A DNA stretch of 64,000 nucleotides from NCBI GenBank assembly GCA_016926735.1, contig JAFGOA010000187.1:1-64000 (forward strand), read 5' to 3'. Numbering within the stretch: the first letter of the stretch is position 1; every line of letters starts with the position of its first letter. Below the pieces are notes generated by a model. That model searched no databases and was not told the origin of the DNA. It saw only the letters and a program-made list of their open reading frames with translations. Below, one piece after another: positions 5,666 to 55,398 of the stretch. This stretch comes from Promethearchaeota archaeon. GTDB lineage: Archaea; Asgardarchaeota; Lokiarchaeia; Sigyniarchaeales; SOKP01. Position numbers and translations under genes: made by a program.

Positions 5666-6346
5666 TTGAGTCGATTTTTTAATATTTTTACTTATACGCC
5701 ATGGGATAATCCTCAAATAAATGAATTATCAGAAGTGAGACTATTATCCATTATGGATATATATAATAAATATCCTGTTATAGAAGCTGAGTTTTTTGAT
5801 GATTTAAAATCAAATATCAAAAATTTTAGTCATTATGAGTCTATTAGTACAATAAAGAGGATTATTGGACCAAATTTAGAGGATTATTCAATTCAAGATT
5901 GGATTTTTATTTGGGTTATTGATCTTGAAAATAGATTTTATCAATTTTTAATTCAAAAAACAAATAAAGATAACGATCTTCAAGGAATTCTTGTTGCTTT
6001 AGCTCCTCCTGAATTGGTTCAATTATTTTCTAAATTTAAGAAAGAAGCCATTCTAAAGACATTCTCTCTAATAAATAATCCTAAAGAGATTAAATTTCTC
6101 AAATTATTGACTTCTCAAGGTAAATCTATTGCAGAAGATAATAAAAAATTCCAGATTAAAAATAAAGATCTTCAAAAAATAAATCTTGTTAATTATTTAA
6201 AAAATACTCCTAATGTTTCAGGGCAATGGTTTCCAAATTATTCTCCTAAATGCCCAATTTGTAATGGTATTTTAACAGAATTAAAAGAATATAAAGTAGG
6301 ATTTGGTAAGTTAGTTTGTCCTCAGTGTGGATATCACAATAAATAG
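5666..6346 (+). CDS. Hypothetical protein with C-terminal zinc ribbon
   Basis: CPIC...CPQCG at the C terminus. Confidence 0.65.
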   Translation: MSRFFNIFTYTPWDNPQINELSEVRLLSIMDIYNKYPVIEAEFFDDLKSNIKNFSHYESISTIKRIIGPNLEDYSIQDWIFIWVIDLENRFYQFLIQKTNKDNDLQGILVALAPPELVQLFSKFKKEAILKTFSLINNPKEIKFLKLLTSQGKSIAEDNKKFQIKNKDLQKINLVNYLKNTPNVSGQWFPNYSPKCPICNGILTELKEYKVGFGKLVCPQCGYHNK

Positions 6347-38918: not shown

Positions 38919-41276
38919 TTATTCATTATTGTATTTAAATCGACTTATTTTATAGATCTCTTGAGCCAATTTTTTCCCAATATTCTCAGTTTTCATAAGT
39001 TCGCCAATATCTGCATTGAAAATATTCTGTATTGTTCGTATTTCTTTTAATAGGCTTTTAGCTCTTAATATATTAATTCCCGGAATACTAGAAACAACAT
39101 ATTCTAATAAATAAGCCATATCAGATGGAGCTTTTTCAAATCTCAATTTGATATTACCTTTTGATGTTGATTGTTCTTTTTTTACCAAATGATATAAGAA
39201 AGTTGTAGTTTCATTGACATCTTTGGTTTTATAAATTGTAACACCTATTTTAAGAATTATGGACGAAATTGCTCCAAATATTGCATTTTCATTTATTGTA
39301 GTGTTCTCTAAAGGATCTCCTTCTAAGACAAGAATTGCATTTTTGAAATTTTTTTTTAATTCAAAAAGCTCTTTAAATAATCTGCCATCTTTTATAGAAT
39401 CCGTAAAGTCTTGAGCACTTTTTCTTTCTATTCCTGTATTTTCAGAAATAATATAATCTGCTATTTCAAGTTGTTCCAACTTTATATTTAAATTCATAAG
39501 AGATAGATTTCTAACAACCGGAGATGCTGTCTCTCTAGTATCACAAATAATTGTATACATTTCTTTATTTTCAGTATCTTCAGAAATAAATTCTGTCTTA
39601 TTATGATTTATATTTCTGTTTTTAGGAATATTTTCTTTTTTTTTCTCTGATAAAAAACTCAAAAGGTCTTTTTGTTCCTTTTTCTGATTATTATTAATAT
39701 CTAGTTCTTTGATTTTTTTTAAATTATTATACATGTTTCTCTCTTTTTTTTTTTCTGCCCAATAATATCCTTCATCTCGAGTATTTTTCCCCATTAAAAT
39801 ATAAACTTTTCCTTCTTTCTTCCTTCCTGTCCGTCCTCTTCTTTGTATTGAGCGAATAGCACTAGGAACAACGTCGTAAAAAATGACCAAATCACATTCA
39901 GCTATATCTAAACCCTCTTCAGCTACACTTGTTCCTATGAGCGTGTTGTAAAAACCGTCTTTAAAATCTTTTAAGATATTTATTTGTTGCTTTTGTGTTA
40001 ATCCTTTATCAGTTCCTTTATTTGCTTGACCAATAAATTTATGAACTTTAATTACAGGATCATTTTTAAAAATTTTAACAATGTTATTTACAGAATCTCT
40101 ATAATGACAGAAAACTAATATTCGAGATTCTGGAATCTGTTTTATTTGTTTATGAATAAGGTCTTTTAGTTTATCAATTTTAGGGTGGACTAAACCTTCT
40201 GATTGAATTTTATTTGTTAAATTTATTGCATTTTGTATGCTTCTATCTAAGAATAATTCTTTGAGAGATTTATTAGCAGTATTTTTTTTCAACTTTTCAT
40301 TATTTTTTCCAAAATAATCTTTTAAAGCATTTATTCCTTGAGTTTCCAATAATTCGATCATATGTGATAATCTTATAGCATTAGCCTGCAATTTTTTTGC
40401 TTTAAATAATTGAAATTTTTCTCCCTCATCATAAGTAGAATTAATTTGACGGCTAATTTGATTATTCAGATCCAATAAATCTTTACGAGTTATTTTATTT
40501 ATATCCACGGAATTTATTAAATCAATATTTTTGAGGAATTTATATATAGATCTTAATTTATCAGTTAAAATCTTTAATATCTCCAAAAATTCTTCTGGAA
40601 GATCAACCTTAATCCACTCTTGTTCAATATTATGAATATATGGCTTAACATCCGCATCCTTTTCTGTTCGAATTTCAATATTTTCAATAAATAAGTTTTC
40701 TTTTATTTCATTAATTTTTTCCTCAGTTGTCCCTGGACTTGCTGTAATACCAAGGATCTGGGAATTTTTTGATATATCTATATATTTTTTTGCAATGAAG
40801 CAATAAGCATAATCTCCTACTGCTCGATGGCATTCATCAAATATAATTAAAGAAACATCTTTCAGAGAGTAGTTATTCGAAATTATATCATTTTGGAGTA
40901 CTTGCGGGGTCATAAAAGATATTTTAATATCCTTCCAAATTTCTCTACGTTCTTCTGGAGAAATAGATCCTGTTATTGATTTTAAAGAATTTAAGTCAAG
41001 GGTAGTCAATTTCTGAAATGATTCATAATGTTGATTTACAAGAGGTTTAGTAGGGGCGAGAAAAATAACTTTTGAATCCGGAAATTCTGCTAATCTATGA
41101 ACTGCAAGCATAAGTGCTATTATTGTTTTACCTAAACCTGTTGGAATTATAACTAAAGAGTTATGATTTAAGCAATTGATAAAAATGTTTTCTTGATATA
41201 ATCTTCTTATAACAAGATCTTTTTGTATTAATGGATGTGAAACATATGGATATTTATTTAAAGTCATACTATTCAA
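38919..41276 (-). CDS. hef: Hef (FANCM-like SF2 helicase fused to an ERCC4/XPF nuclease)
   Basis: PTGLGKT, DECH, TASPG, QRRGRTGR; nuclease motifs DTRE, ERKS. Confidence 0.95.
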   Translation of the reverse strand: MNSMTLNKYPYVSHPLIQKDLVIRRLYQENIFINCLNHNSLVIIPTGLGKTIIALMLAVHRLAEFPDSKVIFLAPTKPLVNQHYESFQKLTTLDLNSLKSITGSISPEERREIWKDIKISFMTPQVLQNDIISNNYSLKDVSLIIFDECHRAVGDYAYCFIAKKYIDISKNSQILGITASPGTTEEKINEIKENLFIENIEIRTEKDADVKPYIHNIEQEWIKVDLPEEFLEILKILTDKLRSIYKFLKNIDLINSVDINKITRKDLLDLNNQISRQINSTYDEGEKFQLFKAKKLQANAIRLSHMIELLETQGINALKDYFGKNNEKLKKNTANKSLKELFLDRSIQNAINLTNKIQSEGLVHPKIDKLKDLIHKQIKQIPESRILVFCHYRDSVNNIVKIFKNDPVIKVHKFIGQANKGTDKGLTQKQQINILKDFKDGFYNTLIGTSVAEEGLDIAECDLVIFYDVVPSAIRSIQRRGRTGRKKEGKVYILMGKNTRDEGYYWAEKKKERNMYNNLKKIKELDINNNQKKEQKDLLSFLSEKKKENIPKNRNINHNKTEFISEDTENKEMYTIICDTRETASPVVRNLSLMNLNIKLEQLEIADYIISENTGIERKSAQDFTDSIKDGRLFKELFELKKNFKNAILVLEGDPLENTTINENAIFGAISSIILKIGVTIYKTKDVNETTTFLYHLVKKEQSTSKGNIKLRFEKAPSDMAYLLEYVVSSIPGINILRAKSLLKEIRTIQNIFNADIGELMKTENIGKKLAQEIYKISRFKYNNE

Positions 41277-41512
41277 GATAAGAAATTATTATTAAATGGA
41301 ATATAGTTATTATACAGGATTAAAAACTATATAAAATATTAGAGTCCTATGGAACACTTAAATCAAATTAATATCTTTTTAATAAATTATTTTTATAATT
41401 TCAAAAAATATTATTTTTCTATCGAGGAAACCTTAAGGTAAAAGTTTATTTCAAATAGGCGATTCTAAATTAATAATATTAAGCGCGGATAGTTTAGCCC
41501 GGTTATAACGAC

Positions 41513-41545
41513 TTATTACTTTGGAGGACCATAGTAAAACGTTAA
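41513..41545 (+). other. tRNA intron 1 (position 28/29, 33 nt)
   Basis: Central helix AACG/CGTT, 3-nt bulges ACT and AAA, inner intron hairpin. Confidence 0.88.
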
Positions 41546-41561
41546 ACGCTCACACCGTGTA

Positions 41562-41590
41562 AATAATTATTCTTTATTAATTATCACGAC
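41562..41590 (+). other. tRNA intron 2 (position 44/45, 29 nt)
   Basis: Canonical BHB: helix CGTG/CACG, bulges TAA and ACG, inner helix ATAATTA/TAATTAT. Confidence 0.92.
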
Positions 41591-41605
41591 GGTCGAGGGT
41601 TCAAC

Positions 41606-41635
41606 TTAGAAGTTCATCTCGAATTTCATTGGAAA
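41606..41635 (+). other. tRNA intron 3 (position 59/60, 30 nt)
   Basis: Relaxed BHB: helix TTCA/TGGA, bulges ACT and AAT, inner hairpin GAAGTTC/GAATTTC. Confidence 0.8.
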
Positions 41636-41776
41636 TCCCTCTCCGCGCATTATTTAATAACATATCAATCTAGAATGAACTTAACTTTAACTGATATATT
41701 CATTATTTTTAATAATAAAAATTAAATGAAATGTTATATTTCATAATATAACTACTCTTTCTAGGTATTATTAAAA

Positions 41777-42079
41777 GTGTCAAGTTTCTTAGAATCTCGA
41801 GAATTAAGAAAGAAATATAAAGAAGTAAGAGAATATGTAAAGATTGGTCCTATCTTCTTAACACGTTATGAAAAAGCCAGAATTGTTGGTGCAAGAGCAC
41901 TTCAAATTAGTTTTGGTGCACCAATTCTTGTTGAAAAACCAAATGATATGATTGATCCAATAAGAATCGCTCAATTAGAACTTAAGTCAGGAATTCTTCC
42001 TCTAACAATCAGAAGAGAAATGCCAAGTGAAGAATTTCAAGATGTTCCAATTAATAAATTAATACTAAAAAAGGATTAA
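41777..42079 (+). CDS. rpoK: DNA-directed RNA polymerase subunit Rpo6 (K)
   Basis: LTRYEKARIVGARALQIS.GAP, LPLTIRR. Confidence 0.96.
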   Translation: MSSFLESRELRKKYKEVREYVKIGPIFLTRYEKARIVGARALQISFGAPILVEKPNDMIDPIRIAQLELKSGILPLTIRREMPSEEFQDVPINKLILKKD

Positions 42080-42257: not shown

Positions 42258-42689
42258 CTATTGAATTCTATATTTTCCTCTTTCAGTAAGATAATAAACC
42301 CTATTCTCACCAACAATCTCAGATGTAACATATCCTTTAGAGATTAAGGTTCCTAATATTTCTTCTAATTCTGCTTTTTTATATGGTTCATTTCCCATTG
42401 GAATTCTACTTTGGTTTGCGATAATTGCAATTCTATTTAGGAACATTCGTTTATTTTGTATTGATTCTATTATTGTCATTTCATCATTACTAAGTTTTTG
42501 AAAACTATCATGAGTAATAATTTGATCTTTTAATGTTTTAGCTAAGTTTAGCGTTTCAGGGCTTGCTTCTTGTTTTTGAGTTTCAACATGAGTTAACTCA
42601 ACCATATCTTTAGCTACTTTTTGTTCTTTCTTTTTAGCGGCTTCTTCAAAATGAGATAATAACTCATTCTTTTTTTCTTCATCATTCAT
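42258..42689 (-). CDS. Hypothetical protein with C-terminal winged helix
   Basis: LEEILGTLISKGYV...YYLTERG wHTH wing pattern. Confidence 0.65.
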   Translation of the reverse strand: MNDEEKKNELLSHFEEAAKKKEQKVAKDMVELTHVETQKQEASPETLNLAKTLKDQIITHDSFQKLSNDEMTIIESIQNKRMFLNRIAIIANQSRIPMGNEPYKKAELEEILGTLISKGYVTSEIVGENRVYYLTERGKYRIQ

Positions 42690-54693: not shown

Positions 54694-55398
54694 ATGAGCT
54701 TTAAAGAAACTGATATTATTAATATTGTTGTAGCAGGAACTGCCGGACAGGGAGTTATTTCAGTTAAACGATTAATTGAATTTGCAGCTCAAAAAGCAGG
54801 CGCAGAGCGAATTCTTGGAAGTGAAATCTTTATTTAGTTAGAATAAAGACATTTAATGCATGGACTCGCTCAGAGAGAAGGTGCTATAACAAGTCATACA
54901 CGATATCAAAAGAAATTGTTCAATAATCCTCGTAAAGATTTGCAATCTTCATTAATCTGCTATGGAGATGCGGATATTTATATTTGTCTCGAACCAGTTG
55001 AAGCTTTGAGAAGAGGTATTTTTGCTTCGGAAAAGACAACTTTTGTAATAAATTCAAGAACAATTCCTGGTGTAATGATAACTGCTGGTCTGGAAAAATA
55101 CCCATCATTAGATAAAATTAAAGAAACTTTGATAGGTAATGCTAAAGATGTTTATTTTATAAATGCTACTGAAATATCTTTAGAATATTTCAAACAAAAT
55201 CAGCAAGTAAATATAATAATGTTAGGTTTTGCTATATCAACTAATAAATTACCTTTTATCGAAATAGATCATTATGAAGATGTAATTAAAGAATGGCTAA
55301 AAGATCCTGAAATAAATATTAAAGCATTGCATTTAGGTATCGAAAAAGGTAAAGAAATAATCGAAAAAATGAATTTAAATCCAGACAAGATAGAATAA
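54694..55398 (+). CDS. iorB: Indolepyruvate:ferredoxin oxidoreductase subunit beta, split by a 30-nt intron (exons 54694-54825 and 54856-55398; 224 aa spliced)
   Basis: Exon 1 MSFKETDIINIVVAGTAGQGVISV...ILGSE joins exon 2 MHGLAQREGAITSH...ADIYICLEPVEALR...NIIMLG, restoring the IorB GxxGQG and SExHGxxQRxG motifs. Confidence 0.9.
54826..54855 (+). other. Candidate BHB mRNA intron in iorB
   Basis: Helix AGTG/CATT, bulges AAA and TAA, 8-bp inner stem TCTTTATT/AATAAAGA; carries in-frame TAG and TAA. Confidence 0.85.

Follow-up and report, generated by a model that had tools for sequence, protein, structure and literature searches.

The segment at positions 41483-41649 (+) of the window, the 64,000-nt stretch of DNA analyzed here, is a real tRNA-Val(CAC) gene interrupted by three short introns of the tRNA type, an identification that our analysis of its sequence confirms. 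The host is a Loki-type Asgard archaeon (Promethearchaeota) and the tRNA reads GUG. Very probably the locus is a single, functional gene whose transcript is spliced by an (alpha-beta)2-type endonuclease (EndA), and whose introns are independent insertions. Multi-intron tRNAs and this type of EndA have already been published for Asgard archaea; the locus is a new, well-supported example of such genes rather than a new kind. The preliminary description of this DNA had placed introns of 33, 29 and 30 nt at 28/29, 44/45 and 59/60, and both the coordinates and the sizes proved to be exact.

The region consists of four G+C-rich pieces alternating with three AT-rich inserts, all read on the + strand. 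Exon 1 (41483-41512, +) holds tRNA positions 1-28, that is, the 5' strand of the acceptor stem, the D arm, G26, A27 and C28. Exon 2 (41546-41561, +; positions 29-44) supplies the rest of the anticodon arm with the anticodon CAC, followed by A44, and exon 3 (41591-41605, +; positions 45-59) contains the variable loop, the 5' strand of the T stem and the T loop up to C59. Exon 4 (41636-41649, +; positions 60-73) begins with T60 and comprises the 3' strands of the T and acceptor stems and the discriminator A73; CCA is absent from the encoded 3' end. Intron positions are given in Sprinzl numbering, and the D loop carries two extra bases. Removal of the introns leaves a 75-nt product that ARAGORN identifies as tRNA-Val(cac) with a full cloverleaf, in agreement with the perfect 75-nt cloverleaf originally predicted. 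This product has a 7-bp acceptor stem, 5-bp anticodon and T stems, and a D stem made up of three Watson-Crick pairs and a U13-U22 mismatch; U33, a T loop containing TTC and discriminator A73 are also present. Its G+C content is 59%, versus 26% for the genome. ARAGORN found no tRNA in the unspliced window and Rfam nothing at gathering thresholds, a silence that is expected because of the three introns. A metagenome scan with the spliced sequence gave 0 matches, an uninformative outcome.

The gene lies between two conserved neighbours. Upstream is a gene for a Hef-type helicase/nuclease (38919-41276, -) with DEAD, Helicase_C, ERCC4 and HhH domains, which was used for the assignment of orthology, and downstream is the gene for RNA polymerase subunit Rpb6/RpoK (41777-42079, +). 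A TATA-like box, TTTATTT (41445-41451, +), is located 38 nt upstream of the mature 5' end. The pattern TTTA[TA][AT] starts at -38 in 40 of 74 distinct orthologue upstream sequences and at -37 to -35 in 12 more, and we infer that the box at -38 is the promoter. Further along the window is a 143-aa ORF (42258-42689, -) with no Pfam match; it adjoins RpoK in most orthologous loci across genera, with 52-99% identity.

The three introns were examined for the BHB motif in the register of the canonical 37/38 case, in which intron bases n-5 to n-2 form pairs with four bases of the exon. The rule applied was a 4-bp central helix with two 3-nt bulges on opposite strands and a cut after the second bulge base. 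Intron 1 (41513-41545, +; 33 nt, at 28/29) is of the HBh' type: its central helix pairs 41507-41510 (AACG, positions 23-26) with 41540-41543 (CGTT), an outer helix is missing, and in the inner hairpin five of the first six positions are paired, the exception being one A-A mismatch. The central helix of intron 2 (41562-41590, +; 29 nt, at 44/45) joins 41556-41559 (CGTG, positions 39-42) to 41585-41588 (CACG), and is accompanied by a 2-bp outer helix and by an inner hairpin of a perfect 7 bp. Intron 3 (41606-41635, +; 30 nt, at 59/60) pairs 41600-41603 (TTCA, positions 54-57) with 41630-41633 (TGGA), including one G-U; its outer helix is the 5-bp T stem and its inner helix is weak. All three introns have the 4-bp central helix and two 3-nt bulges that define archaeal BHB (EndA-spliced) tRNA introns, together with a flanking helix, be it outer (h), inner (h') or both, and their excision restores a canonical tRNA as judged by the ARAGORN call and by intronless syntenic orthologues. 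A BHB or relaxed BHB had been claimed for each intron, and indeed 4/4 central pairs form at each of the three exact boundaries, which are fixed by the exons. Among introns shuffled with preservation of dinucleotides (5000 trials per intron), 4/4 central pairs were reached by 1.0%, 1.3% and 2.0% for introns 1, 2 and 3, respectively.

A BHB-like shape by itself is not significant in an AT-rich gene. Inside this gene there are 34 candidates with four central pairs and a 2-bp flanking helix; under a relaxed BHB rule there are 333 candidates in 167 nt, and combinatorial peeling ranked a wrong four-intron solution first. The same point about the chance frequency of such shapes is made in a 2026 preprint (10.64898/2026.10.13.758758). 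BHB-driven peeling was dropped, as AT-rich sequence offers too many BHB-like shapes, and the weight for the introns is carried by the cloverleaf, the intronless orthologues and the conserved pairing. A motif-free parse, whose score has no BHB term and considers only cloverleaf pairing and the base composition of exons and introns, reproduced the boundaries of introns 1 and 3 exactly and missed that of intron 2, which lies in the structureless variable loop, by no more than 1 nt. Without the composition term this parse gave a two-intron solution, which is wrong and was corrected by adding the term. Other placements were tried and rejected. Cut sites taken from the ACCGU/ACGGU helix of the minimum-energy fold would delete the variable loop. 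An intron 3 at 58/59 in this genome (G000) would leave GTTC and TTGG unpaired, and the best alternative placement gives 3/4 pairs. An intron 2 at 48/49, with the variable loop AAATC as in genus g11, has no central helix, and the intronless orthologues have AGGTC.

By BLAST and an anticodon-arm pattern, the gene was found in 99 of the 151 genomes of the order, all within the window's own family. We retrieved 79 distinct orthologues and tested the flanks at 20 loci; all 20, intronless loci included, adjoin Hef and/or RpoK. Since automated spliced alignment of the orthologues is unreliable where D-loop lengths differ, anchored parsing was used instead. Twenty of the 79 orthologues carry introns 1, 2 and 3, another 20 carry introns 2 and 3, and 14 have intron 1 only. 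No intron is present in 9; introns 1 and 2 occur together in 6, intron 3 alone in 6 (one of them with an extra anticodon-loop intron) and intron 2 alone in 3, and a single orthologue combines introns 1 and 3 with an anticodon-loop intron. Within several single genera there are four or five different states of intron content. The three introns would be independent and dispensable insertions, any subset of which can be seen in related species. The intronless orthologues run uninterrupted through the predicted junctions (GAC-ACG, GTA-GGTC or GTA-GATC, and a 7-nt T loop) and differ from the spliced product at only a few bases.

The splice motifs are conserved through sequence change in these relatives. 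Over 39-40 distinct orthologous copies per intron, the central helix is paired at 98% for intron 1, 83% for intron 2 and 92% for intron 3, and the inner helix at 71%, 81% and 80%, respectively; after a slide of the 3' partner by 1-3 nt, pairing is 12-70%. Compensatory changes in intron 1 affect central pair 1 (A-T, G-T or G-C) and central pair 4 (G-C or A-T). In introns 2 and 3 the inner helix covaries among A-T, T-A, C-G and G-C, and in intron 2 all four combinations are found at the same pair. The site of the T-loop intron depends on the genus: it is 59/60 in g1, g5 and g6, and 58/59 in g2, g10, g11 and g13, the outer helix in these last four being a T stem displaced by one base.

Some orthologues show further peculiarities. 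Two loci from two other genera, L019:1501-1622 (G012) and L022:1501-1653 (G015), have an extra anticodon-loop intron of 18-19 nt. In L019 the best BHB register for this intron is 36/37, not the canonical 37/38, and a 2-nt slide of the boundary leaves the product unchanged. Two genomes of genus g2 have two tRNA-Val(CAC) copies each, G029 (L011 and L030) and G035 (L009 and L101), and the G035 copies differ in their introns (1 and 2 in one, 3 only in the other). These double copies may represent a mixture of strains in the assembly or a true duplication.

The preliminary description had postulated a relaxed EndA, and the enzyme found in the genome fits this expectation. There are two matches to PF01974. 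EndA alpha (L001:1456-2067:-, 203 aa) keeps the catalytic Tyr, His and Lys and matches the catalytic subunit of Aeropyrum pernix (3P1Z_B) from end to end (E 7e-36); its GISKPR aligns with DVEKPR of A. pernix, the SKPR lysine falling on K44 of the Crenarchaea-specific loop. The beta paralogue (L002:1210-1818:+, 202 aa) has both Pfam domains, with Phe and Ser in place of Tyr and His. The genome therefore encodes one catalytic paralogue, with the conserved lysine of the loop insert in its N-terminal part, and one structural paralogue that lacks catalytic residues. On these features the organism's EndA would be an (alpha-beta)2 enzyme of broad specificity that carries the L1 loop. Such an L1-loop (alpha-beta)2 EndA has been reported for Asgard archaea, and the conserved lysine (K44) has been tied to cleavage of relaxed motifs (PMC5829648). 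The likeness to the (alpha-beta)2 EndA of A. pernix (PDB 3P1Z, 3AJV; PMC5829648) extends to the whole-length match of alpha, the catalytic triad, the loop lysine and a second paralogue without Tyr and His. Unlike the A. pernix enzyme, the predicted beta subunit here is full-length (202 aa, both Pfam domains); it matches chains of Methanopyrus and Methanocaldococcus best, not the crenarchaeal beta subunits.

Neither a profile search nor tblastn detected the ligase RtcB in this assembly, whose completeness judged from marker genes is 99%; RtcB is present in 3 of 3 congeners. We read the apparent loss as an assembly break because the contig bearing RtcB in the closest relative overlaps contig C232 of this genome by no more than the latter's final 150 bases (5896-6045), and the gene is probably located in an assembly gap at the end of C232.

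Transcription from the gene's own TATA-type promoter would produce a precursor in which a leader and a trailer flank the ~167 nt of the gene. The (alpha-beta)2 endonuclease, with the loop lysine in alpha, would cut the six 3-nt bulges after the second base, the four exons would be joined by an RtcB-type ligase, and CCA would be added later. The three BHB motifs use separate bases and can form simultaneously in the precursor; because no bases are shared, the sequence requires no order of splicing. The motif of intron 1 takes up the 3' strand of the D stem and G26 (positions 23-26), and that of intron 2 the 3' strand of the anticodon stem (positions 39-42). As had been pointed out from the letters alone, the pre-tRNA must then fold differently from the mature tRNA: with motifs 1 and 2 formed it cannot hold the mature D and anticodon stems, since the helices use those exon bases, and these stems would form only once introns 1 and 2 are out.

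Thermodynamic folding of the naked precursor does not favour this arrangement. Enforcing all three motifs raises the energy by 7.6 kcal/mol relative to the minimum-energy fold; in the ensemble the central helices of introns 1, 2 and 3 have probabilities of 0.52, 0.01 and 0.23, and a competing 5-bp helix, ACCGU/ACGGU, is more stable than the central helix of intron 2. This disfavoured triple-BHB fold is a caveat of the model and points to a dependence on the enzyme. Intron 1, with its missing outer helix, and intron 3, with its weak inner helix, would in any case rely on the tolerance of the enzyme for relaxed motifs.

These figures also bear on the reading in which the gene is real and at least one intron is processed otherwise, by shifted cuts, by ordered splicing or with a helper factor for intron 1 or 2, needed on account of a relaxed or thermodynamically disfavoured motif. 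The lack of an outer helix in intron 1 and the 1% ensemble probability of the intron 2 helix, with its stronger competitor, lend this reading some weight, as do two features of the orthologues: the central helix of intron 2 has only 3/4 pairs in 27 of 39 distinct copies, and the site of the T-loop intron varies by genus between 58/59 and 59/60. We nevertheless consider it improbable, as placements shifted by one base or more lose the central helix (58/59 fails by hand, and the best alternative reaches 3/4) and yield products that depart from the intronless orthologues with their variable loop AGGTC or AGATC; the separate bases of the three motifs also argue against a forced order of splicing.

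It must also be asked whether the locus could instead be a decaying or unprocessed pseudogene, with GUG read by tRNA-Val(UAC) or by a gene missing from the assembly. In favour of this, the assembly is fragmented (238 contigs), two Val(UAC) genes are present, and GTG is rare, at 7.8% of the valine codons in long ORFs. As tRNA-Val(UAC) could read GUG by wobble, the gene may not be essential. A separate intronless Val(CAC) gene, named at the outset as an observation that would speak against a functional locus, was looked for in the assembly and not found: the exon-2 pattern ACGYTCACACCGTGT has one occurrence in the genome, and neither ARAGORN nor the search with this pattern detected another CAC anticodon there. 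Selection on the mature product is visible in the congeners. Within the genus the exons are 96-99% identical and the introns 67-98%, the values for the introns falling to 78% and 67% in the two more distant of the three congeners. Every stem is intact in the spliced product, pairing in the splice motifs is kept by compensatory change across genera, and the syntenic orthologues examined have kept the locus together with its TATA-like box and neighbours. A pseudogene is in our judgement highly improbable. It is scarcely credible that faulty assembly or a chimera in a metagenome-assembled genome created the inserts: the source is a draft with 4.84% estimated contamination, but the same three inserts, with diverged sequence, recur at the same sites in 3 further assemblies of the genus and in a second genus, where 16 genomes have them.

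The three-intron gene can be compared with the other tRNA genes of this genome. In a rough census of 40 dispersed tRNA genes, 7 were without intron, 22 had one, 6 had two and 5 had three, counts that are lower bounds, as the acceptor and T-arm anchors and the motif-free parse used here allow a maximum of one intron per arm. Val(CAC) is therefore typical of this genome and not exceptional. The commonest intron length in the tRNA genes is 30 nt, in agreement with the pool of roughly 30-nt introns that had been suggested. From the similar size of the intron in iorB (54828-54857), the preliminary description had gone on to propose that introns spread from tRNAs into mRNAs; this proposal is not supported. 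Introns 1 and 2 have no significant copies in the genome, where BLAST returned only short AT-rich chance matches (E >= 0.01), and none of the three introns resembles the iorB intron. The size and shape shared with the iorB intron are uninformative about spread, because a shared enzyme would impose both anyway. The finding alone says nothing on the origin of the mRNA mini-introns in this genome.

The genome-wide comparison of introns, advised as a check for recent transposition, succeeded for intron 3 and gave nothing for introns 1 and 2 or the iorB intron, none of which takes part in a pair with z > 2.5. Intron 3 scores z = 5.8 against the T-loop intron of tRNA-Phe(GAA) (G000:C192:30660-30826), and 0 of 300 shuffles scored as high. 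It thus behaves as a member of a transposed intron family of the Thermoproteales type, as introns 1 and 2 and the iorB intron do not. The Phe gene is 167 nt long, has several introns, including a T-loop intron of 30 nt, and is missed by ARAGORN and Rfam. The alignment between the two introns is ungapped through T arm and intron. Identity is 65-83% over their inner 23 nt, a stretch on which the splice motif places no constraint; in a comparison with 33 Val T-loop introns from other genera it averages 31% and reaches at most 48%. On this evidence intron 3 and the T-loop intron of tRNA-Phe(GAA) are homologous.

Four genera of this family, and one belonging to a different family, have the Phe T-loop intron; the Phe-like Val intron turned up in this genus only. 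Because the Phe intron has the wider range, the distribution suggests copying from Phe to Val, and intron 3 of this genus would be a copy from the Phe T-loop intron family. We regard it as about as likely as not, or slightly less, that BHB introns of ~30 nt are still moving in this Loki-type family, the Val intron having been copied from the older Phe intron by way of the near-identical T arms, and that the intron combinations reflect ongoing gain, loss or allele exchange rather than ancient inheritance. If true, this would document a route of arrival for Asgard tRNA introns, a matter left open in the 2026 preprint.

Thermoproteales had been taken as the reference for tRNAs with multiple introns. 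Several non-canonical BHB introns in one tRNA gene are indeed classic there (PMC4090602), but as a sole reference this group is outdated, Asgard cases having been published (PMC11291895; PMC5829648; 10.64898/2026.10.13.758758). With the genes of Thermoproteales (Sugahara 2008; Fujishima 2010; PMC4090602) the present system shares a number of BHB introns that goes up to three in one gene, motifs of the relaxed HBh' kind, an EndA predicted to be (alpha-beta)2, and related introns in tRNA genes of different specificity. Among the sites known from that group, 59/60 is the same as here and 29/30 and 45/46 are near those of this gene. The host, unlike Thermoproteales, belongs to another phylum and has an AT-rich genome (26% G+C) with stereotyped introns of ~30 nt; 28/29 and 44/45 are not among the positions in PMC4090602, and a paralogous copy exists for only one of the three introns.

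tRNA genes with multiple non-canonical BHB introns have been described for Asgard archaea since 2024 (PMC11291895). The 2026 preprint, which covers 90 Asgard genomes, reports two EndA paralogues in most of them and repeated gains of introns with no general route of arrival; copying between tRNA types is almost nil, accounting for 1.5% of introns (10.64898/2026.10.13.758758). The present gene agrees with the Asgard introns of these studies (PMC11291895; 10.64898/2026.10.13.758758) in its several short non-canonical introns with BHB boundaries and in their sites in the D/anticodon stem, variable region and T arm. The two EndA paralogues, the repeated changes of presence and absence at a fixed position and the failure of standard finders are also held in common. 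The "other Asgard families" of the preprint, which include Loki-type ones, have ~0.9 insertions per gene, compared with ~1.2 per dispersed gene in our rough census, in which five genes of this Loki-type genome have three introns. In contrast to the rarity of cross-tRNA copying in the preprint, intron 3 belongs to the T-loop intron family of tRNA-Phe.

The locus extends three-intron tRNA genes and a broad-specificity EndA to a Loki-type lineage, beyond Atabeyarchaeia and Freyarchaeia. That the gene is wholly missed by standard finders bears on the annotation of Asgard genomes, which otherwise seem short of decoders. The 79 orthologues, with every combination of introns, two T-loop sites one base apart and the Val/Phe intron, form a data set for the study of intron arrival and loss.

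Two further observations concern the tRNA genes of this genome. A second family of introns shared between different tRNAs has the core GAAAATTATT and occurs in the T-loop introns of tRNA-Lys(CTT), tRNA-Arg(GCG) and tRNA-Arg(CCT) (G000:C8:2830-2933, C153:44277-44440 and C227:832-936). The Lys intron scores z above 6 with each Arg intron, and the two Arg introns z 2.6 with each other; by eye, the core is also similar to the T-loop introns that tRNA-Val has at 58/59 in genus g2. The genome also contains packed tRNA arrays, with 21 genes at G000:C157:7086-13605 (L110) and 5 at G000:C42:7266-7742 (L111). Nearly all array genes are intronless; jointly they cover all 20 amino acids, Val(CAC) being absent, and they are only 35-60% identical to the dispersed, intron-rich genes with the same anticodon. 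The arrays look like a second tRNA set, possibly an acquired one. Contigs C157 and C42 are at the G+C content of the genome (26%), and C157 has Asgard-type genes, among them those for Arf/Roc GTPases, LRR proteins and WD40 proteins.
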